Shown in pieces: positions 3,001 through 17,721 of a stretch of 64,000 nt of DNA. The position numbers were made by a program, and so were the translations under genes. Location of the stretch: the NCBI RefSeq assembly GCF_009931435.1, contig NZ_CP043414.1; one strand, written 5' to 3'. Positions within the stretch are counted from its first letter, which is position 1; each line of letters starts with the position of its first letter. The DNA is from Escherichia coli. GTDB lineage: Bacteria > Pseudomonadota > Gammaproteobacteria > Enterobacterales > Enterobacteriaceae. The notes beneath the pieces are model-generated. The model ran no database searches and was not told where the DNA came from. It worked only from the letters and a program-made list of their open reading frames with translations.

Positions 3001-3543
3001 TAGCGCGAAGCGTATTTTCCCCTTAAATCCGCGCGTCCATTCGCGAAGCCGCTCCTGTTGACTGTTAATTAATGCATTTAACGGATACAAGAAAATAGCT
3101 TGTGTCCCTGTTAGTGACTGGCGGGTCGATTTTTGCTGACGAATAAGATCTTCCAGAACCGGTACCATAAAGCATTCTGTTTTCCCGGATCCCGTACCGC
3201 TGCTCACTAACAAGGATTTTTTGTCTTCCAGAATTGTTCGCCACGCAGTGAGTTGATGACGAAATGGCACTGGCGCTTTGCTCAATGCATCAACCAGCGG
3301 GCTGGAGATCAGCTTGTCCCGCAAATCCTCCATTGTTTCATCCGCAGGCATCCAGCCGAATGTACTTTCGAATACCGGGTCTGCAAGCAGTGACCCCTCC
3401 TGACCGGGAGGCTGAAAATATTGTGATTCCAGATAATGAGTCAACGACTTGCTCCGCAATGCCAACTGACTTACCACCGACCTCACCGCACGCTGATGAA
3501 GCTGATTTAGAAGTGGCGCATAATGCAGTTGCTGAACGTCCAT
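1..3543 (-). CDS. Large superfamily-2 DEAH helicase, C-terminus runs off the window (at least 1181 codons visible); candidate Druantia DruE-like
   Basis: Minus-strand frame appears uninterrupted from ATG at 3541-3543 to position 1 (checked by hand at several points; not in ORF track because no stop in window). Walker A SSGTGSGKT near 3179-3205, DEAH box VLDEAH at 2782-2799, motif V MEMGVDIGG near 205-231, motif VI QRAGRAGRRGE near 121-153. Cys clusters (FACVCCGD, CSNKQCSH, CDCGAPVFEVLRCSGCG) lie between about 1770 and 2260. Confidence 0.75.
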   Translation of the reverse strand, partial: MDVQQLHYAPLLNQLHQRAVRSVVSQLALRSKSLTHYLESQYFQPPGQEGSLLADPVFESTFGWMPADETMEDLRDKLISSPLVDALSKAPVPFRHQLTAWRTILEDKKSLLVSSGTGSGKTECFMVPVLEDLIRQQKSTRQSLTGTQAIFLYPLNALINSQQERLREWTRGFKGKIRFALYNGETRHTKYEIQEDQLKVPEQALSREAIYEAPPSIMVTNTTMLEYMLIRRKDAPIIEKSQGMLKYIVLDEAHSYIGSQAAELALLLRRVMQAFNVGPGTDKPVQIIATSATIGEDSPEGNKELAKFVADLAGVTERDVKVVRGYRQIPRVSESLIRHEYPTSLTSLKSLSPQDLYQQLCHYRVAQQLRQALTHPGRQAVRLSELLNVARRTWPDINHRELLQLLDLMARSREGELAFTPLRMHGFIRTLAGLWACSNKQCSHKAHELNQSDWPFGQVWFEQRQYCDCGAPVFEVLRCSGCGSAYLSAKEEMRGDGTNWLVAQPAAAEVDEFALDVDVYSEDEDNDELDNNSQFDRLIASDGEKYIISLEETTAGKIDSEAQKHYEINLLRPESRGEGRNNSFACVCCGDTQRKNNPLFRPLRLGAPFFLNEIIPTLLEFSPLPQTREEQLGPFNGRRLLTFTDSRQGTARISARLQQDADKATLRALCYQELANINEPSAKLSPAHCALLESFIAQFSILPLKNSIDALKKAMVANEELSPADIQALKIIEPMVSSLSPDHAEAMQILQANSGNQQKKTMSWQTLSEQLVGSVDLADRMRGSFKELSGLDLTKQQFADFCLYSEFGRRPKNAWTLESLGLVAIHYPFIDKVTTCPQDWKTLLPDPDKQLAEWRNLLKITLDFFIRENSAVFYENEQYPRWMGARFPVKMLQGPDKKNKGQKRDQLWPQIRDRHYNRVIKLLIAVFPAIQPEQAHWKSLVNHLMIEVWDAIRPCLRQFESGYQLDIKQQAEFYSPKQVWRCPYTRRALDVTLLGYSPYLPGSKEIAPEKAVLIEMPELPVRHWRLSGGGEIAREERLEWLESNALIQHAREEGLWSTRSDRLALKDSWYRLEEHSAQRTPEQNQFNEKQFKSGKVNVLNCSTTMEMGVDIGGMSLVAMNNVPPAPANYLQRAGRAGRRGESASAAITLCKNTAHGMEVFKDPLWAFNTTASAPRVRFGSS

Positions 3544-6500
3544 CAATGACATACTCCTGCTTGTTCAAAATAATATTGATAGATTACCCCTAATTGCTGT
3601 GGGGCTTGCTGATAGTGAAATTCAAAAAGCGCAGACAGTTGATGTATCAGGTTATTATCTTTTTGGGTTAACAGCGCTGCGACTAACATCAAATTAAAAC
3701 GTTTTTCAAGCCGTGAGTGATATTTATCTTCAATCCAAAGCTTATTAAAAACAGATTTTAACTCTGGAGTAATAGCACTAGACCAAAGTTCTTTAGGGAA
3801 GATACTGATACGCCCAAAGCTGTCGGGGTTCCTTAATAGCATCTGTTTAGCTTCATTAAACTGCTCACGACTAACAGTTGGCAATACATCACAACCGGTT
3901 GGTAGGCTCTCACTATATGTAAGTAACATATTCGCAATGGGAGCCAGCCGACGATCGATATGTGCACGATGGTTCATAAAAGCAATAAAGGGTTGCAATA
4001 TATGTAATGCTAATGTTTTATCGTTAATCTGTTTTTCCAGATAAGTCCAACATTTTTGGAAAACATCTTTCCAGATTGAAACGGGAATCCATCCCCATGA
4101 AAAGGGTAATTCTTCCTGTATATCATAAATCGTATCGCTATCACCAGAAAGACATGATGATATTAACAATTGAACAACCACGCGGTAATTACTCGAAATA
4201 CCTCTGAACAAGTCCAGATCCAGCAAGGATAAGCCATTATTCATTTTGTACTTCTTAATATACTCTGTTAATAAACAGCAATAATTTTGCAATGGGTTGT
4301 TATCTATTTCAAAAATTAGCTCATTAAAATTTTTTTTGCGCTGTTCTGGGTCTGCTTCGCATAGAGCATTTAGTAATAAATCATTTGTCTGCAATACAGG
4401 TAGCATCCATTTAATTACTGGTGCAATGCGAGCTGTACCATCAAGTTTTCCCACAATTAACCATGGACTATCCTGAACATTCAGAGCTGAAAGATCATAA
4501 GCAAATTCATCTTTTTTTAGCAATGATTTGTGTAAGCCAGGATCCTTAAGAGAAATAGCATCAACAACCAGTTCGTCTATTCTATTTGCAGGAAAAACAA
4601 CAGAATTTTTTATATCAACCAGCAACCCTTGATCGTGTTCAATAAAACTACCATCGTAGCGTTTAATATTGAGTGTTGCTTTATCCTTTCCAAATCTGTC
4701 AGAGTAAAAATCAACACATAATGTACTATTGCTGTTCCATGCACATGCCAGCATAGCATTTAGCAAATTATAGTTCTCATAAAGTGAAATTTGTTGTAAT
4801 TTGTCATTGCGTCCTGATAAAAGAGGAAGGTCGGCATGTAAATAACGGAATTTTTCAGCTACTGGATTTTCATCCAATAACTCGATATTAAGATATCCTC
4901 TTCCAGCACATGATATGGTTAATAACTCAGCATCTATTCCATGCAAATGTGCTATAGATGCCACACCATCAAAATGAACAGAACCATCATTAGTTACAAA
5001 TCGGCCACCGCTAACCGGCTTAGGTAATAATAGTTTAAGATTAGAACCATCTTTCCAGGAGACCCGTAAATCAACGGTATTTTCCAGCATCTGCGATGAA
5101 TTATAATAAATAGCACACTCGTTTTGTGAATAATCGGACTTAAGTGTTACTTTTTCATTGTTTGAATATTTATCAATTCTAGTATCCGTTATACCAGAAA
5201 GCATAATAATGCCTTGCTGAGCACTCTCAGGTATAATATTAATATCGAAGTCTGCTGGTAAAACTACAACTTTACCGCTAAATAAAACCTCATCATTAAC
5301 TATTCGCCGGACTTCTATCTGTCCTTTTGGCATTTCTGATGCGACAGAATACCAGGCATTGTTACCTGAACGAATGGAACGCCAAAAAAGTTCTTTCTCC
5401 GGTACAATGCCATATTGCAGATCCTTTTTCCAACCGATCTTCGGCCAGGCTCGATGGACAGGATAATCCGATTTAACCAGTTCAACTTCTGTCGATTTAA
5501 TATAATATTCAATCGCAGAATCATAAAGTTGCTGGGTGCGAATTGTACAAACAGCACCATCATGTAAAACAACGCTAAATACTCCACTTATTTTAGTTAA
5601 GCTGCGTTCACTGTTTTTCAGCAACCTTGGGATATCAAACTCACCTTCTCCACTAATATCTAAATGGCTATTTTTCGGTAGCGAAATAAACAGAGCATTT
5701 AGCCTGGAACTCACAGACCCCATACCGACAAGTTTTAGCTGCGATTCACTCTCATTCATCGCTTCAAAAACCCAGGGGAGTTCTTCAGTAAGTTCATAAC
5801 CGCCTTTTGGAATTGTGTGGCCTAACAGAATTGGACCTTCATGAAGCGACAACGAGATTTCGGCCATTGCATCTGCACCAGAGAGCTTTTGCATCGCAAT
5901 AGGTAATAACTCGACCCGCCAATCTTGCTGCTCATAACGGCTTAGCATTGCCAACCTTGCCCCGCCATTTCTCCATTTTCCTGAAATGATGAGTCGGGTC
6001 TGCTCCGGCTGAATATGGCATTCAAACAAAGAGGTTAACTGTTCTGTACGCATTGTGGCCGGGAATCGGAACCGGGCATCACAATACCAACTGTCATCAA
6101 CATCGACCCAGATTCTTTCAACCTGAAGACTACTTGCACTGCGTATTTCAGAAGATTGAGAAAGTAATCGCCTTACAATCTCTGCAGCATTCGCTTCGGG
6201 GAGAACGAGTGGAAGTTGAAGATGCCAGTCTGGAGAGAGCTTACGTAATGCAGAAACGGGATCACTGCTTTGAGGTGGATGCTCACTAAGTAATCGGCAG
6301 AGAGTCTCGCAGAATTCACCGGCTATTTCATAGACCAGTTCGTTTTGCATTGTGACAGGAATCGTATCGCCTAATTCTTGTGCAATTTTAGCGGCAGGAT
6401 ATTGAGATGCTTGCCCACGAAGCGCCTGATATATCCTTCTGAAATAGGTAATCAAATAACCGCTCTCATTTTCAATCATGCGGATAGGTAAACCACCTTC

Positions 6501-6902
6501 ACAAGCCAGTGTATGCAGATAACCCGAAGCTTGCCCCAGGTTTCTTATCTTTCTTTTCCAGTAGCGAATGCCATCATTAACCAGCTTCTGTCGATGAACA
6601 TACGGAACTTTCCAGTCAATAGAATCTAAAATTGTGTCCCATTTAGGGTGTCCGACCGTATGAGTCCGGCGGATAAACTCTGCGGCATATATGCTAAATA
6701 GAACATCGCTATAGGAAATGAATATCGTTCTTGGATAACTACGAGGGGCATATGTACGCAGTAGTTCTGCCAAACTTTCGTACTCTGTATCAGTACAACG
6801 GTAAGCATATAACGCCCGTCCATCAGCTCCGGATAATGAACGGCGACTAAAAAACATGTTAAGCCATTGCAAAAGTGGGTTAACTGGAGTTTTCACAAGC
6901 AA
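3543..6902 (-). CDS. Hypothetical 1119-aa protein, no recognisable motifs; upstream partner of the helicase (candidate DruH-like)
   Basis: Single long ORF in track; AT-rich; its TGA stop overlaps the helicase ATG (ATGA at 3541-3545), implying translational coupling. Confidence 0.6.
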   Translation of the reverse strand: MLVKTPVNPLLQWLNMFFSRRSLSGADGRALYAYRCTDTEYESLAELLRTYAPRSYPRTIFISYSDVLFSIYAAEFIRRTHTVGHPKWDTILDSIDWKVPYVHRQKLVNDGIRYWKRKIRNLGQASGYLHTLACEGGLPIRMIENESGYLITYFRRIYQALRGQASQYPAAKIAQELGDTIPVTMQNELVYEIAGEFCETLCRLLSEHPPQSSDPVSALRKLSPDWHLQLPLVLPEANAAEIVRRLLSQSSEIRSASSLQVERIWVDVDDSWYCDARFRFPATMRTEQLTSLFECHIQPEQTRLIISGKWRNGGARLAMLSRYEQQDWRVELLPIAMQKLSGADAMAEISLSLHEGPILLGHTIPKGGYELTEELPWVFEAMNESESQLKLVGMGSVSSRLNALFISLPKNSHLDISGEGEFDIPRLLKNSERSLTKISGVFSVVLHDGAVCTIRTQQLYDSAIEYYIKSTEVELVKSDYPVHRAWPKIGWKKDLQYGIVPEKELFWRSIRSGNNAWYSVASEMPKGQIEVRRIVNDEVLFSGKVVVLPADFDINIIPESAQQGIIMLSGITDTRIDKYSNNEKVTLKSDYSQNECAIYYNSSQMLENTVDLRVSWKDGSNLKLLLPKPVSGGRFVTNDGSVHFDGVASIAHLHGIDAELLTISCAGRGYLNIELLDENPVAEKFRYLHADLPLLSGRNDKLQQISLYENYNLLNAMLACAWNSNSTLCVDFYSDRFGKDKATLNIKRYDGSFIEHDQGLLVDIKNSVVFPANRIDELVVDAISLKDPGLHKSLLKKDEFAYDLSALNVQDSPWLIVGKLDGTARIAPVIKWMLPVLQTNDLLLNALCEADPEQRKKNFNELIFEIDNNPLQNYCCLLTEYIKKYKMNNGLSLLDLDLFRGISSNYRVVVQLLISSCLSGDSDTIYDIQEELPFSWGWIPVSIWKDVFQKCWTYLEKQINDKTLALHILQPFIAFMNHRAHIDRRLAPIANMLLTYSESLPTGCDVLPTVSREQFNEAKQMLLRNPDSFGRISIFPKELWSSAITPELKSVFNKLWIEDKYHSRLEKRFNLMLVAALLTQKDNNLIHQLSALFEFHYQQAPQQLGVIYQYYFEQAGVCH

Positions 6903-7113
6903 CCTGCCTTCCTTTGATACAATTCGTAACAGGTTACTATCATCATAAAAAAGCTCAACCCGATGAACTCGCTAAAAATGAGACAAATCATTTATATCTC
7001 GAAAAAACTTGTTACAATCATGAGCGCTACACCGAACTTAACCATATAAATTATGTGCGTTTTGTTTATTTTTTAAACAATTACAACTATCCATTATTTA
7101 CACAGGTATCAAA

Positions 7114-8766
7114 ATGTTAGCGCAGCTTTTTGAGCAGTTGTTTCAATCGATAGACTCTACACTGATCACCAATATTTTCATCTGGGCTGTTATATTCGTA
7201 TTTTTATCAGCGTGGTGGTGTGACAAAAAAAATATACATAGTAAGTTTAGAGAATATGCTCCAACCTTAATGGGGGCATTAGGTATTCTGGGTACTTTCA
7301 TTGGTATTATTATTGGGTTACTCAATTTTAATACTGAAAGTATTGATACCAGCATCCCCGTATTATTAGGCGGCCTAAAAACAGCATTCATTACAAGCAT
7401 TGTAGGTATGTTTTTTGCCATTTTATTTAATGGAATGGATGCTTTCTTTTTTGCCAATAAACGAAGTGCGTTAGCAGAAAATAACCCTGAATCTGTTACA
7501 CCTGAACATATCTATCATGAATTAAAAGAGCAGAACCAGACTCTGACTAAATTAGTCTTGGGTATTAACGGTGATAGTGAAGGTTCTCTTATTGCTCAAA
7601 TAAAATTACTACGTACTGAGATTAGCGATTCCTCGCAGGCACAATTAGCTAATCACACTCATTTCAGTAATAAGCTTTGGGAACAACTTGAACAATTTGC
7701 AGATCTAATGGCAAAAGGTGCTACAGAACAAATTATTGATGCTTTACGACAAGTCATTATTGATTTTAATGAAAATTTAACTGAACAGTTTGGTGAAAAC
7801 TTTAAAGCACTTGATGCCTCTGTAAAAAAACTTGTTGAGTGGCAGGAAAATTATAAAACGCAAGTTGAGCTGATGTCAGAACAATATCAACAAAGTGTCG
7901 AGTCTCTGGTTGAAACAAAAACTGCGGTTGCCGGGATTTGGGAAGAATGTAAAGAAATTCCTCTGGCTATGTCTGAACTGCGTGAAGTGCTTCAGGTGAA
8001 CCAACATCAAATCAGCGAACTCTCCCGCCATTTAGAAACCTTTGTCGCTATCCGCGATAAAGCTACAACCGTATTACCTGAAATACAGAACAAAATGGCT
8101 GAAGTGGGTGAACTGCTGAAATCCGGAGCTGCAAATGTTAGTGCATCTCTTGAGCAAACCAGCCAGCAAATACTTCTTAATGCAGATTCAATGCGCGTGG
8201 CCCTGGATGAAGGTACCGAAGGATTCAGACAATCGGTTACCCAAACACAACAAGCATTTGCCTCGATGGCACATGATGTCAGCAATTCCTCCGAAACTCT
8301 AACCAGCACGTTAGGTGAAACAATTACTGAAATGAAACAAAGTGGTGAAGAATTCCTGAAGTCACTAGAGTCGCACTCGAAAGAATTGCATAGAAATATG
8401 GAACAAAATACGACTAATGTAATTGATATGTTCAGTAAGACTGGTGAAAAGATTAACCATCAACTATCCAGTAATGCCGATAATATGTTTGATTCAATCC
8501 AGACATCATTTGATAAGGCAAGTGCAGGGCTGACTTCTCAAGTCAGAGAATCAATTGAAAAATTTGCTCTATCCATCAACGAGCAGTTACATGCTTTTGA
8601 GCAAGCAACTGAACGTGAGATGAACCGTGAAATGCAATCATTAGGTAATGCTCTGCTTTCAATCAGCAAAGGTTTTGTCGGTAACTATGAAAAACTTATT
8701 AAAGATTACCAAATAATTATGGGACAGTTACAAGCATTAATTTCTGCTAATAAACATCGAGGGTAA
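7114..8766 (+). CDS. zorA: MotA/ExbB/TolQ-like membrane protein with long coiled-coil tail; ZorA-like (Zorya)
   Basis: Three N-terminal hydrophobic helices (LITNIFIWAVIFVFLSAWW, LMGALGILGTFIGIIIGLL, IPVLLGGLKTAFITSIVGMFFAILF) followed by about 440 aa of Q/E/L-rich heptad-like sequence; first gene of a three-gene operon. Confidence 0.65.
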   Translation: MLAQLFEQLFQSIDSTLITNIFIWAVIFVFLSAWWCDKKNIHSKFREYAPTLMGALGILGTFIGIIIGLLNFNTESIDTSIPVLLGGLKTAFITSIVGMFFAILFNGMDAFFFANKRSALAENNPESVTPEHIYHELKEQNQTLTKLVLGINGDSEGSLIAQIKLLRTEISDSSQAQLANHTHFSNKLWEQLEQFADLMAKGATEQIIDALRQVIIDFNENLTEQFGENFKALDASVKKLVEWQENYKTQVELMSEQYQQSVESLVETKTAVAGIWEECKEIPLAMSELREVLQVNQHQISELSRHLETFVAIRDKATTVLPEIQNKMAEVGELLKSGAANVSASLEQTSQQILLNADSMRVALDEGTEGFRQSVTQTQQAFASMAHDVSNSSETLTSTLGETITEMKQSGEEFLKSLESHSKELHRNMEQNTTNVIDMFSKTGEKINHQLSSNADNMFDSIQTSFDKASAGLTSQVRESIEKFALSINEQLHAFEQATEREMNREMQSLGNALLSISKGFVGNYEKLIKDYQIIMGQLQALISANKHRG

Positions 8767-8772
8767 TCGATC

Positions 8773-9480
8773 ATGGATAAGATTATAGGGAAACAATTAC
8801 CTAAAAAAGATCAAGATAATGAACACTGGGTATCCATGTCAGACCTAATGGCAGGGCTGATGATGGTTTTTATGTTCATATCTATTGCTTATATGCACTA
8901 CGTACGTATTGAAAAAGAAAAAATTAAAGAAGTTGCCGTAGCCTACGAGAATGCTCAGTTACAGCTTTATAATGCTCTGGATATTGAGTTTGCAAAGGAT
9001 TTACAAGACTGGGATGCAGAGATCGATAAACAGACTCTGGAGGTTCGATTTAAATCACCGGATGTTTTATTTGGCTTAGGAAGCACAGAGCTAAAACCAA
9101 AGTTTAAACTCATTCTTGACGACTTCTTTCCTCGCTACCTAAAAGTTCTAGATAATTATCAGGACCATATTACTGAAGTCCGCATTGAAGGTCACACAAG
9201 TACTGACTGGACAGGAACAACGAATCCTGATATTGCTTATTTTAATAATATGGCACTATCACAAGGTCGTACACGTGCAGTATTACAATACGTTTATGAC
9301 ATAAAAAATATCGCGACACACCAACAATGGGTTAAAAGTAAATTTGCCGCAGTAGGTTATTCATCTGCACATCCCATTCTTGATAAAACCGGCAAGGAGG
9401 ATCCTAATCGCTCTCGTCGTGTCACCTTCAAAGTTGTAACAAATGCCGAATTGCAGATTAGAAAGATTATTCAGGAGTAA
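8773..9480 (+). CDS. zorB: MotB/OmpA-like peptidoglycan-anchoring protein; ZorB-like
   Basis: N-terminal TM segment (LMAGLMMVFMFISIAYM) and C-terminal OmpA/MotB-like region (NMALSQGRTRAVLQYV, NRSRRVTF); starts 6 nt after zorA stop. Confidence 0.65.
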   Translation: MDKIIGKQLPKKDQDNEHWVSMSDLMAGLMMVFMFISIAYMHYVRIEKEKIKEVAVAYENAQLQLYNALDIEFAKDLQDWDAEIDKQTLEVRFKSPDVLFGLGSTELKPKFKLILDDFFPRYLKVLDNYQDHITEVRIEGHTSTDWTGTTNPDIAYFNNMALSQGRTRAVLQYVYDIKNIATHQQWVKSKFAAVGYSSAHPILDKTGKEDPNRSRRVTFKVVTNAELQIRKIIQE

Positions 9481-9483
9481 GAG

Positions 9484-10587
9484 ATGAAATTATCTATCGA
9501 CATTTCAGAACTTATTCAATTAGGGAAGAAAATGTTACCAGAAGGAGTCGATTTTTTTCTGGATGAATCCCCTATTGACTTTGATCCTATAGATATTGAG
9601 TTATCCACGGGTAAAGAAGTTAGTATCGAAGATCTTGACCCTGGTAGCGGGCTTATCTCTTATCATGGCCGCCAGGTTCTTTTATATATTCGGGACCATT
9701 CAGGGCGTTATGATGCGGCTATCGTAGATGGCGAAAAAGGAAAACGTTTTCATATTGCCTGGTGCAGAACTCTTGATGAAATGCGCCATAAAAATCGATT
9801 TGAAAGGTATCATGCAACTAACCGCATAGATGGTTTATTCGAAATTGATGATGGTTCAGGTCGGAGCCAGGATGTTGATTTACGGGTATGTATGAATTGC
9901 CTCGAACGACTTAATTATAAAGGAAGTATTGATAAACAACGAAAAAGAGAGATTTTTAAATCATTCTCATTAAATGAGTTTTTTTCAGATTATAGTACCT
10001 GTTTTCGTCATATGCCTAAGGGTATCTATGACAAAACAAATAGTGGGTATGTCGAAAACTGGAAAGATATATCTAAATCAATACGAGAAAAGGCAAATTA
10101 TGTTTGTAATGATTGTGGCGTGAATTTATCAACCGCCAAAAACTTGTGCCATGTCCATCATAAAAATGGCATCAAATATGATAATCACCATGAAAACCTT
10201 CTTGTTCTGTGCAAGGATTGCCATCGAAAACAGCCCCTCCACGAAGGTATATTCGTTACCCAAGCTGAGATGGCTATCATTCAACGTTTACGTTCCCAAC
10301 AAGGGTTATTAAAAGCAGAATCCTGGAATGAAATATATGACCTGACTGATCCATCAGTGCATGGTGATATTAATATGATGCAACATAAAGGCTTTCAACC
10401 TCCTGTTCCTGGGTTAGATCTTCAAAACTCAGAACATGAAATTATTGCAACCGTAGAAGCTGCATGGCCAGGCCTTAAAATTGCAGTTAACCTTACTCCC
10501 GCCGAAGTCGAAGGATGGAGAATATATACCGTGGGTGAGCTGGTTAAAGAAATACAAACAGGAGCCTTTACGTCAGCAACGTTGTAA
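9484..10587 (+). CDS. zorE: HNH endonuclease-domain protein; ZorE-like (Zorya type II effector)
   Basis: C-terminal HNH signature CNDCGVNLSTAKNLCHVHHKNG...NHHENLLVLCKDCH; starts 3 nt after zorB stop. Confidence 0.6.
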   Translation: MKLSIDISELIQLGKKMLPEGVDFFLDESPIDFDPIDIELSTGKEVSIEDLDPGSGLISYHGRQVLLYIRDHSGRYDAAIVDGEKGKRFHIAWCRTLDEMRHKNRFERYHATNRIDGLFEIDDGSGRSQDVDLRVCMNCLERLNYKGSIDKQRKREIFKSFSLNEFFSDYSTCFRHMPKGIYDKTNSGYVENWKDISKSIREKANYVCNDCGVNLSTAKNLCHVHHKNGIKYDNHHENLLVLCKDCHRKQPLHEGIFVTQAEMAIIQRLRSQQGLLKAESWNEIYDLTDPSVHGDINMMQHKGFQPPVPGLDLQNSEHEIIATVEAAWPGLKIAVNLTPAEVEGWRIYTVGELVKEIQTGAFTSATL

Positions 10588-10597
10588 ATTCCGAAAC

Positions 10598-10623
10598 TCC
10601 GTGAAAGTTAAGACTTTCACGGA
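10598..10623 (+). other. 11-bp stem hairpin just after zorE stop (terminator-like, no U-tract)
   Basis: tccgtgaaagt-taag-actttcacgga. Confidence 0.35.
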
Positions 10624-10796
10624 AGATAAATAAAATTCTCCTGATTTGTGACTCAAATTATAAAAGTCGTTTATGGCATAACTTGTCTGTTTTTTTGGTG
10701 TAATAGGTATAAAGGCATATGCTATGGTTAGCCTTATATTTAAAACTTTCCTCATACGGGTGAAGGTTAAAGCTTGGTAGATAGGTTACAGTCACA

Positions 10797-11406
10797 ATGA
10801 ATAAAGCAATAACGGTGCTTGCTATAATGATGGCTTCATTTTCCGTAAATGCGTATGTATTACCGGAAACGCCTGTGCCATTTAAAAGTGGTACCGGAGC
10901 AATTGATAACAACACTGTCTACATTGGTTTAGGTAGCGCAGGTACGGCATGGTACAAGCTGGAGAAACAGACCAAAGATAAAAAAATGGACAGCGTTAGC
11001 TGCATTTCCTGGTGGACCGAGAGATCAAGCAACTTCTGCATTTATTGATGGCAATCTGTATGTGTTTGACGGCATTGGCAAAAACAGTGAGGGCTTGACT
11101 CAGGTATTTAATGACGTTCACAAATACAACCTCAAAACCAATAGCTGGGTTAAATTGATGTCGCACGCGCCGATGGGCATGGCGGGTCATGTGACATTTG
11201 TACACAACGGCAAGGCTTATGTTACTGGCGGTGTTAACCAGAATATCTTCAATGGCTATTTTGAAGATCTTAACGAAGCTGGAAAAGATTCAGCGTACCG
11301 GTCACCGGAGAACTGGATGACGGTACTGCGAAGCAGTCATTTCAGTCGGGGGATGATTGTAGACAAATTTGTTGACGCTATTTTGCGGTTTTGGCGTGAA
11401 GGGTGA
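10797..11406 (+). pseudogene. nanM: N-acetylneuraminate epimerase (nanM/yjhT) N-terminal fragment, frameshifted and truncated
   Basis: ORFs 10797-11048 and 11062-11406 together carry the NanM signal peptide and first Kelch-like repeats (MNKAITVLAIMMASFSVNAYVLPETPVPFKSGTGAIDNNTVYIGLGSAGTAWYKL; FDGIGKNSEGLTQVFNDVHKYNLKTNSWVKLMSHAPMGMAGHVTFVHNGKAYVTGGVNQNIFNGYFEDLNEAGKD) but are split by a frameshift and end far short of the full-length protein. Confidence 0.6.
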
Positions 11407-11413
11407 GCGTTCA

Positions 11414-12064
11414 TTAATTTGATTTATTTGCATCCATCAACGCTTTTAACTGCTCCGGCGAAAACGGTGGTTTGCGTCGGTGCAACATCGCATGGCAATT
11501 AGGGCACACAGGAAGCAAATCATTAACTGGATCCAGCTGGTAATTCTCTTTAATGGCTGAAAGCGGCACCAGGTGATGCACATGGATAAAGCCTTCAGCG
11601 ATATCACCATAGATCTTCACCAGATCAACGCCGCATACGTTGCACTGGCATCCATGATGTTCGACCGCTTTATCTCGGGCCTTTTTATCGCGTTCATAGC
11701 GGTTTACTGTCACCTTTATCGCCGCACCTTCAACGTATGTCTCCTGCGACGGCAACTCATCCGGGAACAGAACGTCGGCTATGGGAGCCGCAGCGGCTTT
11801 ATCCTGATGAATATGAAATCCCTGCTCTATGAGTAGTTTGACGCATTTAGATTTTATTCCGCCGGTGAAATCCGCAGGGGTAAATTGCGTCCCCGTCATC
11901 AATGTCGCTGCGATGCCAGCAATCGCCTTCGAGGGGTAACGTCGGCCATGATATTCAATCTCATACAACCGCGCAGGCTGGAACTGATGAGTTTCTCCCG
12001 CATCCCATAAATGGATAGCTTCGATGATATACCGCCGCGGAAGATGATCAGGGAGTTTATTCAT
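11414..12064 (-). CDS. HNH endonuclease with about 140-aa N-terminal domain of unknown function
   Basis: C-terminal HHGCQCNVCG...HVHHLVPLS...NDLLPVCPNCHAMLH (zinc-finger HNH); N-terminal region has no motif I recognise. Confidence 0.7.
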   Translation of the reverse strand: MNKLPDHLPRRYIIEAIHLWDAGETHQFQPARLYEIEYHGRRYPSKAIAGIAATLMTGTQFTPADFTGGIKSKCVKLLIEQGFHIHQDKAAAAPIADVLFPDELPSQETYVEGAAIKVTVNRYERDKKARDKAVEHHGCQCNVCGVDLVKIYGDIAEGFIHVHHLVPLSAIKENYQLDPVNDLLPVCPNCHAMLHRRKPPFSPEQLKALMDANKSN

Positions 12065-12143
12065 GGAGAATGTCCTTATACGTTCTCAGAACAGGCAGCA
12101 AAAAAACAAATGAGATCAAGGTAATATATCTTCACTTGCAGGC

Positions 12144-13073
12144 TTGAACAGCAGAAAATTTGCGAGCATGATCGCAATTATTTCACTGCCAGGGATATCA
12201 ATGGCTTCCAGTAAATCGCTACAGCAGGCAATTGCCAATATAAAAATCTGGCACAAGGGTGAACAGCGCGCGCCGCATAAGCCATTGTTATTGCTATACG
12301 TATTAGCGGGATACCTGAATGGACATCCGCGCCTTTTCGATTATGGCTCGGAAATCTACGAACCTCTGCACAGTTTACTGGAACGTTTTGGGCCACAGCG
12401 TTCACAGTACCGACCTGATATGCCGTTCTGGCGATTACAAGGCGACGGATTCTGGCAATTACACAATGCCGAACTTTGCTCAACAGCAGGGAGTAGCCGA
12501 CAACCGCCAGTGAAGGAACTGACCGAACACCGCGTTGCAGGCGGTTTCGATGAACAGCACTATGCCCTGGTAATCGGCAATAAAAAACTCATCAATACCC
12601 TGGCGCAACAGATACTCGAAGCGCACTTCACCGAGAGCATTCAGGAAGAAATTGCTGACGAGCTGGGTTTTGATCTCCAGCAAATCCGTAAACAGCGCGA
12701 CCCGTTATTTCGCAAACTTGTATTGCGCGCATATAACTACCAGTGCGCGATATGTGGCTTTAATATGCGCCACGATGACACCACCGTCGCACTGGAAGCA
12801 GCGCATATAAAATGGAAACAGCACGGCGGTCCTTGTGAAATTCCTAATGGCCTGGCGCTTTGTGCAATACACCATAAAGCCTTTGATAAAGGATCGATTG
12901 GCCTGGATGAAAATATGCGGGTACTGGTCTCGGATGCGGTAAACGGCGGAGGGATCGTTGAGAAACTATTCTGGGATTTTGACGGGAAAACTATTGCGTT
13001 ACCACAGGTGCGTAAAAATTACCCTTTTGAGGGGTTTGTGGAGTGGCATCGAAAAGAGGTTTTTAGGGGGTGA
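12144..13073 (+). CDS. HNH endonuclease with about 190-aa N-terminal domain of unknown function (start may be a downstream Met, e.g. 12201)
   Basis: HNH signature CAICGF...AAHIKWKQHGGP...NGLALCAIHHKAFDKG; divergent from the 216-aa HNH gene across a 79-bp spacer. Confidence 0.7.
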   Translation: MNSRKFASMIAIISLPGISMASSKSLQQAIANIKIWHKGEQRAPHKPLLLLYVLAGYLNGHPRLFDYGSEIYEPLHSLLERFGPQRSQYRPDMPFWRLQGDGFWQLHNAELCSTAGSSRQPPVKELTEHRVAGGFDEQHYALVIGNKKLINTLAQQILEAHFTESIQEEIADELGFDLQQIRKQRDPLFRKLVLRAYNYQCAICGFNMRHDDTTVALEAAHIKWKQHGGPCEIPNGLALCAIHHKAFDKGSIGLDENMRVLVSDAVNGGGIVEKLFWDFDGKTIALPQVRKNYPFEGFVEWHRKEVFRG

Positions 13074-13114
13074 GGTTGATAACTATCGCAGTATGTTCAA
13101 TATTGCTGACATAA

Positions 13115-13297
13115 TCAGTGCAGGATCTTGCCGCTAGTTTACAACTCGCCTTCGATAGCGGCGCAAAACGAGTTCTGTTGCCGATATCCTCGGCTATGGA
13201 TATTCCAACAGTTCCGGCAGAGTTGTTTACCAAGTTTCAGGTAAGTTTTTACTCAGAACCGGTTGATGCGGTTTATAAGGCGCTGGATGTGAATTAA
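13115..13297 (+). pseudogene. C-terminal remnant of a Lon-like protease gene (possibly BrxL-like), no start codon
   Basis: Open frame with no Met translates to SVQDLAASLQLAFDSGAKRVLLPISSAMDIPTVPAELFTKFQVSFYSEPVDAVYKALDVN, resembling the extreme C-terminus of Lon-family proteases (compare Lon AAHRGGIKTVLIPFENKRDLEEIP...). Confidence 0.4.
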
Positions 13298-13628
13298 CAC
13301 ATTCCTCAGCTTATTTACAAAAGGATTATTCCCATTTGATATAATATCAGTGCCAATTTACTTTTTTCAATGGAATATATCTCGGCTAAATAACAATAAA
13401 ACTTATCGCTAATGGATTAAATAAACAATTTTCTAATTTATTTCACCACCTTTGATATAGAAATTGATGGTGTTGTCGCTGCCATTGCTTATGGTGATGA
13501 TAAAATCCACGTTTCTGGATCGGTGCGTAGAAAATCATCACTTCCTTGATATTTTGATGCGATATGATCATACCGTTCCGTAGTACCAATTTCAACTTCA
13601 GGCTAAACCCCAACATTAAAAAAATTAG

Positions 13629-13672
13629 AGTTATTCACTGATTATATTATCAATAATATAATCAGTGAATAA
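13629..13672 (-). terminator. Perfect 20-bp inverted repeat immediately downstream of the 682-aa gene, followed on the minus strand by a T-run; likely intrinsic terminator
   Basis: gttattcactgattatatta / tcaa / taatataatcagtgaataac; minus-strand downstream sequence ctctaatttttttaatg. Confidence 0.5.
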
Positions 13673-13695
13673 CATGGACTATATAATAAATTGCT

Positions 13696-15744
13696 CTAAT
13701 CATTTCCCTTACGAATATATGGGCCAAAAGCCCAAGAATCATAATAAGGGTGATGGACTAATTTTTCATTAAATCGAACACTATAAGTTAATTTTTTTAT
13801 ATTTTTACGTACAGCATTAATACTGGGCAAAGAGGAAAGATAATCTATAAACTTATCGATAGTGATTTTCCCTTCGCAACACTCAAACCCATCAATGATA
13901 TTTTTCGCCATTTTTCCATTTTCATTTGTTTGATATATCACTCCAGGTATTCGTTGAAAAAAACTAGATAATGCATATTTGTCCGCTACATATGTATCAT
14001 CCACATGATATTTCCCACCGAGCATAGTTGTAGTAACAATAAGCTTATACACACCTTTGGGTTGCCATGTTGATGGTAGTTCGAATTCTTTAATGATCAC
14101 ATCAAGATGATTAAGATAATGTTCAGAAATTCGATTTATTTGTTGAAAATAAGAACGCATAAATTTATTATTATGATCATGTATTAATGAGCTATCTCCA
14201 ACGATGTTACACACTTGCTGATAGTACTTACCATAATATATTGGTTGACCATTTGATTTTAGTTCTGTAAAAATCAAACAATCATCCAGGAGAATCACGC
14301 AATCGCACTGATAATTAGCATGAGCATCAATTGGAGAAGCTTTAATCCCCGCATCACGAACTTGTTTTATAAATTGTTGCTCATGAAATCGCCCTTTACT
14401 TGCTTGAGAAATTTTTTTGGAACCAAATAATGACATTAGAGAGCGAGTCACTGAGCTATTTGCTATTAATGCAGGCATTAAGCATAAACCGTCCATACAG
14501 GGAATAAATGGGCAATCATTAAGATCATGTGATTTTGAATTGAAGGTAAAATAATCTATCAGTTTTTTTGCTGCATCTGCTGCAATCCCCTTACGTTGAA
14601 AGAATGATAACCAACTCTCACGGCTTTTTATGACCAGCCAGCGATCCAACTGTAGGGGTATAGGTTTTGTCGATGAAAATCTTTTGCTCATTTCTTCTTT
14701 AGATAACTCGACTAAACATTGATAAGCGTGCACCCAATTAAATAATGATATATTCCCATATTCTTCATGAAGGTCATCAGGAGACATATTTTCCAACTCG
14801 CTTAAATGAAATGAGCTAAAAACGCCATCAGAATTTAAGTAAGATGGCATATGATCCTTTACCCAACTATTTAGATGAAAATGTTTGTTACTAAATTCAT
14901 GAACTTCGCTATATAGATGTGACGCTCTCATCATTAGTCTATTTCTTGCAATCTCATAATCTCGGTATAAACAAAAACTATCAACCTCAAGAGAGTAAAT
15001 GTTATTATCCAATTTTGTAAATACTGCACTACTTAGTCTGAAAAAGTCTCTTACTCTGCTTAATGAGTCAAAAACATTCCACTCATTAAGGTACCCTCCC
15101 ATTGAAAGCAAGGTTTGTTTATTCACACAAGAAGTTAGTTTCAATGGCCCATGAGTCCGTAAATAAGAAAATATTCTTCCGGTGTAATTGGCTACCTCAT
15201 CAAATGCCCTATCGATAACTCGAAAATATTCGATATCAGGTTCAGCATGAATATTAATATTTTCAGAAACGATAAATAATGGAAAAATCCTCTTCATTTT
15301 TTTAGGATCATTGACCACAACCAAGGATGATAATGATGATAAAAACATCTCACAAAACATGATGAGATTAAGTATTAATGCATGTGATTTTTTTGTATTT
15401 TTACGCCAAATACCAGCACATTTTGCAGCCCCAAAGAAAGAATTATTTATATCATGCATAATTTTACATTGACTCTCGAACTCAGAGATTAGTTCAATGT
15501 TATCAGGAAATGAGTTTACTAGCTCATTAATACATTTTTTGAATGTATTGTTATACTCAACTTCAGTCTGAACTGAAAATCTATTATAATAGATGGAAGA
15601 TATTCTCAGCACATCCAAGGCGATATCTATACTAATATCATCTCTTTTTATGTACTCACAAAAAAAAGAACAAAACTGTTTCGGGTCGTTAGCAAGATTA
15701 CTAATTCTAGTGGTATCATAAACTTTTTCCATTTTTCCATACAT
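13696..15744 (-). CDS. Hypothetical 682-aa protein, very AT-rich, no confident domain assignment
   Basis: Single long ORF flanked by more than 600 bp of AT-rich non-coding DNA on each side; possible PD-(D/E)xK-like motif CDCVILLDDCLIFTELK in the C-terminal third (weak). Confidence 0.6.
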   Translation of the reverse strand: MYGKMEKVYDTTRISNLANDPKQFCSFFCEYIKRDDISIDIALDVLRISSIYYNRFSVQTEVEYNNTFKKCINELVNSFPDNIELISEFESQCKIMHDINNSFFGAAKCAGIWRKNTKKSHALILNLIMFCEMFLSSLSSLVVVNDPKKMKRIFPLFIVSENINIHAEPDIEYFRVIDRAFDEVANYTGRIFSYLRTHGPLKLTSCVNKQTLLSMGGYLNEWNVFDSLSRVRDFFRLSSAVFTKLDNNIYSLEVDSFCLYRDYEIARNRLMMRASHLYSEVHEFSNKHFHLNSWVKDHMPSYLNSDGVFSSFHLSELENMSPDDLHEEYGNISLFNWVHAYQCLVELSKEEMSKRFSSTKPIPLQLDRWLVIKSRESWLSFFQRKGIAADAAKKLIDYFTFNSKSHDLNDCPFIPCMDGLCLMPALIANSSVTRSLMSLFGSKKISQASKGRFHEQQFIKQVRDAGIKASPIDAHANYQCDCVILLDDCLIFTELKSNGQPIYYGKYYQQVCNIVGDSSLIHDHNNKFMRSYFQQINRISEHYLNHLDVIIKEFELPSTWQPKGVYKLIVTTTMLGGKYHVDDTYVADKYALSSFFQRIPGVIYQTNENGKMAKNIIDGFECCEGKITIDKFIDYLSSLPSINAVRKNIKKLTYSVRFNEKLVHHPYYDSWAFGPYIRKGND

Positions 15745-16421
15745 CCTATTGTCTAAATTACTATAAAATTAGCCACTTAACTAATAATTATAAATTTCAT
15801 CTTTTGCACCTTGCATTTTTATAACCAATGAAATCTACAACAAGCAACTGATGGATAATCCGATATTGGTCGCATTTAATGGCATGGTAGCAAAGTTTTC
15901 ATCACATACCTCCTTTGCACCAGAATAAACGCCAGAGACCTGAAATTGCGAGTACACTACAGAAATTGTACTGCCGGTCCCATCAGCATAAAACCATAGT
16001 TACACAGGTAATCATCATTATTCACCAAGATAATAAATATTATTCGGTAGAATAGCGTTCTCAGGTGGTCAGTAAAATTGTCTTCAACAAGATGTCTGCG
16101 CATCTCGTCTGCTAGCCCTACATAACTGCTCTCGACCGAAACTATTTATTGAATGTTCACCAAGGTGGGCGTGGAGACAAAATGACGTCTTTTGATATTA
16201 GCTACCTGAGCCACATGGTCAAAACGTTCAAGTAGCATAGCGAAACCACCCTGCCCACGTAATGTGGACGATGCAGCTTCCAGCCAGAGCAAACTTGGGA
16301 CCATCGACTACCAAATGAAGAATACTGAACTGCTTTTCTGGCAGGCCTATATACTGCACGGATATGGGTGATTTCAGACACAAAAAAAGCCGCTCTTGAG
16401 CGACTCGATTTGCATACGGTG

Positions 16422-16506
16422 TGGTGCCGAAGGCCGGACTCGAACCGGCACGTATTTCTACGGTTGATTTTGAATCAACTGCGTCTACCGATTTCGCCAC
16501 TTCGGC
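16422..16506 (-). tRNA. leuX: tRNA-Leu (anticodon CAA), leuX
   Basis: Minus-strand sequence GCCGAAGTGGCGAAATCGGTAGACGCAGTTGATTCAAAATCAACCGTAGAAATACGTGCCGGTTCGAGTCCGGCCTTCGGCACCA, with T-loop GGTTCGAGTCC and 3' CCA; matches recalled leuX. Confidence 0.9.
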
Positions 16507-16701
16507 ACTGAAGAGGTATGCGGAAAACGTTGTGGATTATACCTGTCACGCGCCACCATGCAAGCGCCAGCTTGCTCGCACCTCGCTAAGTGCTGAAATT
16601 TTCAGCATTGCATTCCGCGATGTGTAACCTTTGTCACACTCCAGGCACCCCGCCCTACCATGCTCTACACTTCCCAGACAACACCAGAGAAGGACAAAAA
16701 T

Positions 16702-17721
16702 ATGTCGATGATAAAAAGCTATGCCGCAAAAGAGGCTGGCGGCAAACTGGAAGTTTATGAGTACGATCCCGGTGAACTGAAACCACAAGATGTCGAAGTG
16801 CAGGTGGATTACTGCGGGATCTGCCATTCCGATCTGTCGATGATCGACAACGAATGGGGATTTTCACAGTATCCGCTGGTTGCCGGGCATGAGGTGATTG
16901 GGCGCGTGGTGGCGCTCGGGAGCGCCGCGCAGGATAAAGGTTTGCAGGTCGGTCAGCGTGTCGGGATTGGCTGGACGGCGCGTAGCTGTGGTCACTGCGA
17001 CGCCTGTATTAGCGGTAATCAGATCAACTGTGAGCAAGGTGCGGTGCCGACGATTATGAATCGTGGCGGCTTTGCTGAGAAGTTGCGTGCGGACTGGCAA
17101 TGGGTGATTCCACTGCCAGAAAATATCGACATTGAATCTGCCGGGCCACTGTTGTGCGGCGGTATCACGGTCTTTAAACCACTGTTGATGCACCATATCA
17201 CTGCCACCAGCCGCGTTGGGGTAATTGGTATTGGCGGGCTGGGGCATATCGCTATAAAACTTCTGCACGCAATGGGATGCGAGGTGACGGCCTTTAGTTC
17301 GAATCCGGCGAAAGAGCAGGAGGTGCTGGCGATGGGTGCCGATAAAGTGGTGAATAGCCGCGATCCGCAGGCACTGAAAGCACTGGTGGGGCAGTTTGAT
17401 CTCATTATCAACACCGTCAACGTCAGCCTCGACTGGCAGCCTTATTTTGAGGCGCTGACGTATGGCGGTAATTTCCATACAGTCGGCGCGGTCCTCACGC
17501 CGCTGTCTGTTCCGGCCTTTACGTTAATTGCGGGCGACCGCAGCGTCTCTGGTTCAGCAACAGGTACACCTTATGAGCTGCGTAAGCTGATGCGCTTTGC
17601 CGCCCGCAGCAAGGTTGCACCGACTACCGAACTGTTCCCAATGTCGAAAATTAACGACGCCATTCAGCATGTACGCGATGGTAAAGCGCGCTACCGAGTG
17701 GTCCTGAAAGCAGATTTTTGA
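16702..17721 (+). CDS. ahr: NADPH-dependent aldehyde reductase (zinc alcohol dehydrogenase family)
   Basis: Protein starts [14 protein letters not shown], contains GHEVIG and CGICHSDL; adjacent to leuX as in K-12. Confidence 0.9.

Follow-up and report, generated by a model that had tools for sequence, protein, structure and literature searches.

The open frame at positions 13115-13297 of the 64-kb stretch of Escherichia coli DNA analysed here (hereafter the window) very probably belongs to a non-functional deletion scar, i.e. the 3' stub of a brxL gene left behind when a BREX type 1 system was lost at the leuX hotspot. The scar is real and precisely reconstructible but ordinary, and it is already marked as a RefSeq pseudogene in hundreds of genomes. 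The features discussed below are collected in Table 1.

Identity of the frame was assessed with protein family models and with direct alignments. The frame directly follows a TAA codon and its translation is SVQDLAASLQLAFDSGAKRVLLPISSAMDIPTVPAELFTKFQVSFYSEPVDAVYKALDVN, ended by a stop. NCBIfam model TIGR02653 (BrxL) matched it with E=1.2e-24 and 86.7 bits, over the last 59 model positions only (617-675 of 675), and the PADLOC BrxL model with E=8e-20 over positions 622-680 of 680. As the curated whole-protein cut-off of TIGR02653 (628.25 bits) is not reached, the frame is a fragment of a member of this family and not a member. At the DNA level, it shares 93.9% identity with the 3' end of intact brxL (181 nt aligned, E=5e-71). 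Residues 606-694 of intact BrxL, used as a tblastn query, matched 13085-13294 of the window (E=1e-28); when full-length BrxL was searched against the whole window, these residues alone aligned, the N-terminal region and the AAA+ ATPase core being absent. The original prediction had proposed a tblastn search with the BrxL C-terminus, which thus turned out positive, and had considered a chance open frame lacking similarity to BrxL as the opposite outcome, at odds with both the TIGR02653 match and the DNA identity.

Similarity to Lon in general is of another order. Pfam Lon_C matched the frame weakly (E=0.28, profile positions 158-200 of 205) with 11.1 bits, below the gathering score of 21.1, so that the frame does not qualify as a Lon protease (MEROPS S16). 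The catalytic serine of Lon sits in a part of the protease domain that is absent from this match. The C-terminal domain of intact BrxL matches many solved Lon protease structures, and the BrxL C-terminus has been described as a Lon C-terminus without catalytic residues (StySA paper, PMC9009780). The weak Lon_C match and the structural similarity are the points in favour of a fragment of housekeeping Lon or of another Lon-like protein (RadA/Sms, LonC, ComM), or of a chance open frame; such an origin is almost certainly wrong, because the scores of the BrxL-specific models (69-87 bits) exceed that of Lon_C (11 bits), and because DNA identity to annotated brxL genes is 92-94%, with homology running on into the spacer downstream of brxL. 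The frame therefore resembles BrxL specifically, and a generic Lon assignment was rejected: of the Lon-family C-terminus announced by the original prediction, the homology proved far beyond chance but the family had to be narrowed to BrxL, as its suggestion of a BrxL-type gene whose body was deleted had it.

Table 1. Features of the brxL scar and of its surroundings (positions in the window)
Feature	Position	Strand	Basis and remarks
Phosphorothioate (PT)-DNA-dependent HNH restriction endonuclease gene, intact	12201..13073	+	NF045808 E=5.5e-131; Pfam HNH_2
brxL relic	13084..13297	+	214 nt; codons ~606-694 of the 694-codon BREX-1 brxL minus 19 internal codons; tblastn, DNA alignment to L001 and L003 brxL, TIGR02653/PADLOC
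Deletion junction, 6-bp microhomology TATCGC	13084..13089	+	common to the left flank and brxL codons 605-607
Premature stop, Lys615 AAA to TAA	13112..13114	+	alignment to intact brxL; in 7/7 relic loci compared
Join of the 57-nt (19-codon) in-frame internal deletion	13114..13124	+	one remaining copy of the imperfect 11-nt repeat CCRGTRCAGGA; in 7/7 relic loci
59-codon GTG-started ORF	13118..13297	+	ORF list; RefSeq pseudogene, N-terminus missing
Original brxL TAA stop, end of relic	13295-13297	+	
brxL-PLD intergenic spacer remnant	13298..13395	+	98 nt here vs 118 nt in 2015C-3108; blastn
Second relic, first 62 codons of a PLD-like (DrmC/ZacB-like) nuclease gene	13396..13580	+	tblastn of the L001 PLD protein
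682-aa gene, uncharacterised, right flank	13696..15744	-	ORF list, synteny map
tRNA-Leu(CAA), leuX, island anchor	16422..16506	-	ARAGORN; only tRNA in the window; ahr, idn genes and yjgR next, as in other E. coli

According to tblastn and global alignment, the relic starts about 31 nt upstream of 13115. The frame first delimited is correct as given, but the relic to which it belongs is longer, and another one, derived from the 5' end of a PLD-like gene, had been missed. Positions 13085-13114 correspond to brxL codons 606-615 and read IAVCSILLT followed by a stop, where the intact gene reads IALCSILLAK; it is because of this premature TAA that the frame had seemed to begin at 13115. Homology detected by blastn ends at 13118, the upstream brxL piece being detected by tblastn and global alignment. 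The 35 nt that separate the HNH gene from position 13118 might be taken for filler DNA; this reading was rejected, as the same two methods identified these bases as brxL codons 606-616, beyond the 57-nt deletion. As to the latter, the repeat CCRGTRCAGGA encodes P-V-Q twice in intact brxL (CCAGTACAGGA ... CCGGTACAGGA), the two starts being 57 nt apart, and the window retains a single hybrid copy, TCAGTGCAGGA.

Related strains carrying the intact gene at the same position, the second comparison proposed at the outset, were found: 2015C-3108 (locus L001) and MY1-8 (L003) carry brxA-brxB-brxC-pglX-pglZ-brxL there, and their order is nanM - nanS' - HNH' - PT-dependent HNH - PDC-S11 (minus strand) - brxABC - pglXZ - brxL - cargo - tRNA-Leu - ahr. 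In both strains brxL has 694 codons and variable cargo follows it. Using blastn, window 12091-13082 aligned to L001 at 96.7% identity, the match ending 9 nt beyond the stop codon of the HNH gene, and window 13118-13580 aligned to L001 20001-20484, which comprises the terminal 180 nt of brxL, the spacer and the initial 186 nt of the PLD-like gene, at 84.7% and with indels. No other BREX remains were detected in the 64-kb window by tblastn with all proteins of the intact block; brxA, brxB, brxC, pglX and pglZ gave no significant match, so that the window cannot be assigned a BREX type 1 system. The PDC-S11 gene, which lies on the opposite strand between the PT-dependent HNH gene and brxA, encodes a protein of 332 aa matching a PADLOC candidate defence family (E=7e-114). 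It was located at 5452-6450 in L003 and 9286-10284 in L012, also shows a weak NucS/Cas4-like nuclease match, accompanies BREX or Wadjet at the slot, and is lost from the window together with BREX.

After the PT-dependent HNH gene, the slot alternatively contains BREX, McrBC, PDC-S11 with Wadjet, or the relic, and in RMDEC364 a cytosine methyltransferase gene occurs at this slot next to an unnamed gene. Such a range of contents agrees with the turnover of defence cargo that the original prediction had proposed. Its idea that HNH genes replaced the lost body does not hold, since the PT-dependent HNH gene lies directly upstream of intact BREX in 2015C-3108 and MY1-8 (96.7% identical), and since the 216-aa HNH gene farther left varies independently of BREX presence; the main HNH gene coexisting with intact BREX elsewhere, the HNH genes did not replace it. 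This main gene had been described as 309 aa long: it does adjoin the relic, but its RefSeq homologues have 873 nt (290 aa), corresponding to window 12201-13073. The 309-aa frame is the maximal ORF, opened by a TTG, of which window 12144-12200 is extra; NF045808 aligns from its residue 25, and the first ~19 codons are probably untranslated. The N-terminal part of the protein is a sulfur-binding domain (matching the ScoMcrA domain, PDB 5zmo), followed by the HNH domain.

The exact parent allele of the relic was not found: among intact brxL of complete E. coli genomes none exceeded 93.9%, and plasmids reached 83.8% at best. Divergence from intact brxL at the slot is about 6% in the coding part and about 15%, with indels, in the spacer and PLD part. 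The deletion must therefore have taken place in a BREX variant not sampled intact here, or else the flank is heavily decayed. Differences between the relic and the intact alleles are mostly synonymous (8-9 vs 3), hence the parent allele was functional and differed by about 6% from the sampled ones.

The left junction was resolved with MINF_1A, whose flank reads GATAAC-TATCGC-GTCCC, intact brxL reads GCGCT-TATCGC-TTTATG and the window reads GATAAC-TATCGC-AGTATG; as the hexamer is present in both parental sequences, two TATCGC copies were joined by a large deletion. After the junction two mismatches come at once (AG vs TT), and 7 of 34 positions of the short upstream piece differ from intact brxL. 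A junction without microhomology had been considered, L001 and L003 giving 1-2 nt at most, and was rejected once the MINF_1A flank allele showed the shared TATCGC. Measured on MY1-8, the deletion amounts to about 14.56 kb, in which PDC-S11, brxA to pglZ and brxL codons 1-605 were lost.

We propose the following history. In an ancestral E. coli chromosome, the interval from the PT-dependent HNH gene to leuX would have contained PDC-S11, the whole BREX type 1 operon (brxA-brxB-brxC-pglX-pglZ-brxL) and a gene for a PLD-like nuclease. Two copies of TATCGC, the first located 11 nt past the stop codon of the HNH gene and the second at codons 605-607 of brxL, would then have undergone illegitimate recombination, with the loss of some 14.56 kb. 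The remaining 3' stub would later have decayed by a nonsense codon and by a slippage deletion of 57 nt between the 11-nt direct repeats, while the PLD gene would have been truncated on its far side, where different cargo, i.e. the 682-aa gene, now adjoins. The relationship to brxL, the synteny, the sequences at the junction, a single origin and the relaxed constraint are shown by the data; we infer the order of these events and the loss of 14.56 kb in a single step, the end state fitting one step or several. As the junction uses E. coli-specific flank, it was at this slot of an E. coli chromosome that the deletion arose.

Downstream of the stub, the debris of the PLD gene is likewise recognisable. 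Intact PLD protein matches Pfam PLDc_2 and PADLOC DrmC/ZacB, and its gene follows brxL in some strains. In the relic the start codon is changed from ATG to ATA, the sequence is split into frames +1, +2 and +3 (three tblastn pieces, 69-75% identity), and it is truncated at 13580, where homology stops abruptly. A perfect AT-rich palindrome of 44 bp (13630-13673; 21-nt arms, 2-nt gap) lies 50 nt past this point and 23 nt downstream of the stop of the 682-aa gene; it looks like the terminator of that gene, because a T-run follows on the minus strand. A 10-nt repeat, ATAATCAGTG, common to the relic and the palindrome was judged to be due to chance.

What remains of brxL presents the marks of a pseudogene: it is truncated relative to syntenic intact orthologues, it bears disabling lesions, constraint on it is relaxed and RefSeq flags it. 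In BrxL structures (8emc, 8emh, and 8eil for the isolated domain), the Lon-like domain spans residues ~512-693, and the relic retains residues 606-618 and 638-694 only, interrupted by a stop, i.e. less than 40% of this domain. Across its seven copies, the 180-nt frame shows two synonymous, five nonsynonymous and one nonsense change, vs 45 synonymous and 18 nonsynonymous changes for the adjacent HNH gene in the same strains (Fisher p=0.015), and polymorphism of the relic thus looks unconstrained. Having neither an ATPase domain, nor a plausible ribosome-binding site, nor BREX partner genes, and less than 40% of the Lon-like domain, the stub does nothing for phage defence.

The 59-codon GTG-started ORF might yet be a living small gene, whose product, a BrxL-tail microprotein, would modulate an incoming BREX or host transcription. 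The frame, called start-less by the original prediction, does contain a GTG at 13118; no Shine-Dalgarno-like sequence precedes this GTG when the sequence is read. In all but one of the seven relic loci this ORF remains open, and it is conserved at 98.6-100%, but this high identity is explained by recent common descent, the RMDEC364 copy has an additional stop at codon 47, and the ratio of two synonymous to six nonsynonymous or nonsense changes is unlike that of the neighbouring gene. It is probably carried on the HNH transcript: no plus-strand terminator was predicted in 13074-13630, i.e. from the HNH stop codon to the palindrome, hence the stub is predicted to be transcribed passively as the 3' tail of the HNH mRNA. 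An over-expressed 807-nt 'brxL fragment in StySA had genome-wide transcriptional effects (PMC9009780), but that fragment has 269 codons and the whole Lon-like domain, when the peptide would cover ~57 of the ~183 residues of that domain. Taken together, we consider a functional microprotein highly improbable.

A role as terminator or structured RNA was also rejected, as there is no plus-strand terminator and no Rfam family, and as the RNA fold has an unremarkable z-score of -1.92, with 7 of 200 shuffles as stable; Rfam gave no family match in the region, apart from meaningless hairpin matches on the 13630-13673 palindrome. That the stub is not inert, acting as a regulatory or stabilising 3' tail of the PT-dependent HNH transcript, as a 59-aa BrxL-tail peptide, or as a homology anchor by which the conserved brxL 3' end would help to swap downstream cargo between strains, seems very improbable.

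To follow this scar among strains, seven relic loci were compared, i.e. those of the window, GmM077, WEC, 536, O145 RM9872, Ecol_316 and RMDEC364. The junction, the TAA and the 57-nt deletion are common to all seven. With a 101-nt junction probe (window 13055-13155), 360 of 5,426 complete E. coli genomes (~6.6%) were found positive, always on the chromosome and in single copy, and this shared junction points to one ancestral event. RefSeq annotates the copies of GmM077, WEC, 536, RM9872 and Ecol_316 as a pseudogene with missing N-terminus, named 'peptidase' or 'hypothetical protein'. Species-representative genomes, scanned for exact 38-mer matches, yielded a single one outside E. coli, in a 'Lachnospiraceae' MAG contig. 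This contig (L013, SFGN01000178.1, 'Lachnospiraceae bacterium', 4180 nt) is 98-99% identical to window 12246-16436; such identity to the leuX island makes it almost certain that contaminating E. coli DNA was mis-binned here.

What surrounds the relic varies among carriers: some have Zorya II and others lack it, the 216-aa HNH gene may be complete or only a stub, and elements of P4-like or PAI type lie past the 682-aa gene. The RMDEC364 relic passes, exactly at the stop codon of brxL, into an MY1-8-type downstream flank, such as typifies another BREX locus, and the cytosine methyltransferase gene replaces the 682-aa gene. Divergence among the seven strains is 0-1.4% in the relic, vs 3.3-4.1% between the window's HNH gene and those of the other six, which suggests that the scar moved between backgrounds by homologous recombination. 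The truncated block (stub, PLD stub and 682-aa gene) may accordingly have been imported from another E. coli, no full BREX having ever existed in the lineage of the window. We give this scenario a little less than an even chance: besides the lower divergence of the relic, it has in its favour that the relic is found in different architectures, in which Zorya II and the full-length 216-aa HNH gene may each be present or missing, and with two different downstream flanks. It does not conflict with the loss of BREX proposed above, as it bears on where the deletion happened and not on what the sequence is.

The region as a whole is a defence island in the sense of variable defence cargo next to tRNA-Leu(CAA), between nan/fim genes and ahr. 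The leuX locus, well known to be hypervariable, corresponds to defence hotspot #37 of E. coli, at which BREX, AbiE, Wadjet and Zorya have been recorded (PMC10121019; PMC12707154). Left of leuX, the window carries, in order, the 682-aa gene, the relic, the PT-dependent HNH gene, the 216-aa HNH gene, a nanM stub, type II Zorya and a YjiT-family gene. No duplication of the leuX 3' end that could represent an att site was found in the window.

Next to the relic, the 682-aa gene is present in six of the seven loci compared; in 2015C-3108 its place is taken by the remainder of the PLD gene together with an IS3 remnant and AbiE and integrase fragments. Its product matched no Pfam, NCBIfam or PDB profile, and its AlphaFold model (pLDDT 47.9) was too poor for a fold search. 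Relatives were found in Enterobacterales only, i.e. in E. coli, Salmonella (75%) and, at 41-52%, Izhakiella, Xenorhabdus, Pectobacterium and Pantoea. Weak hints of a PD-(D/E)XK/NERD-type nuclease were obtained, namely a D...ELK motif around residues 481-496 that is invariant in eight homologues, a Pfam NERD match in one relative (E=0.036) and a match to PADLOC PDC-M29B (E=0.0014). It is possible that this is an uncharacterised defence gene of the hotspot.

On the other side, the 216-aa HNH endonuclease gene (11414-12064, minus strand) is full length in the window, Ecol_316 and RMDEC364, and cut to a 3' stub of 105-114 nt in BREX-carrying strains and many relic carriers; its presence or absence is a second polymorphism, independent of BREX. 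Type II Zorya is complete at 7114-10587 (ZorA2, E=1e-301, ZorB2 and ZorE). Of the adjacent nanM, a frameshifted 5' stub is left (10797-11406), and no homology to nanC or nanS was found in the compared part of the window (6001-17000), strains without Zorya carrying both here. Upstream of Zorya lies a gene for a 1119-aa protein of the STY4851/ECs_5259 (YjiT) family (3543-6902, minus strand; NF038336, E=5e-297), in the same arrangement as in MINF_1A.

On its own, the stub is of little importance. It nevertheless provides a clean, datable marker of one BREX-loss event, carried by about 6.6% of complete E. coli genomes, and could be used in phylogenetic work to trace recombination at the leuX hotspot; other strains have the intact gene at this slot. 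BREX was lost here through short-homology deletion (6 bp, and 11-bp repeats); neither IS activity nor excision by an integrase was the route. In RefSeq, 'brxL pseudogene (3' fragment)' could take the place of the labels 'peptidase' and 'hypothetical protein'.

Compared with BrxL of BREX type 1 (TIGR02653; 8emc, 8emh, 8eil), the relic has about 70 homologous last codons, the same stop codon and the same slot, but lacks about 605 N-terminal codons (N-terminal, ATPase and most Lon-like regions) and bears the 19-codon deletion and the nonsense codon. Comparable, too, are the brxL pseudogenes of LD27-1 and ATCC 8739 (annotated 'S16 family serine protease'), which are likewise 3'-terminal stubs left after loss of the remaining BREX operon; they differ in lying at other chromosomal loci and in being bounded by IS1 (LD27-1) or IS911 (ATCC 8739), whereas the window relic has no IS at its edge and a 6-bp microhomology. 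These two stubs were located at L006 7926-8180 and L007 7851-8078. The occurrence of IS-bounded, independent stubs at other loci means that BREX decay was repeated, and by different routes. The StySA 'brxL fragment of Salmonella (PMC9009780) is also a C-terminal brxL piece in a leuX-anchored island, but it is engineered, 807 nt long, contains the whole Lon-like domain and is driven by a cat promoter, whereas the window relic is natural, 214 nt long, interrupted and unlikely to be translated; this whole-domain, over-expressed construct is the sole report of an active C-terminal BrxL fragment. Finally, the window shares its location with hotspot #37 (leuX) of Hochhauser et al. 2023 (PMC10121019), and the BREX, AbiE, Wadjet, Zorya II and type IV restriction repertoire described there is seen here and in related strains. 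The words 'remnant' and 'pseudogene' are absent from that survey, and the scar can be seen as a by-product of the cargo turnover that it records.
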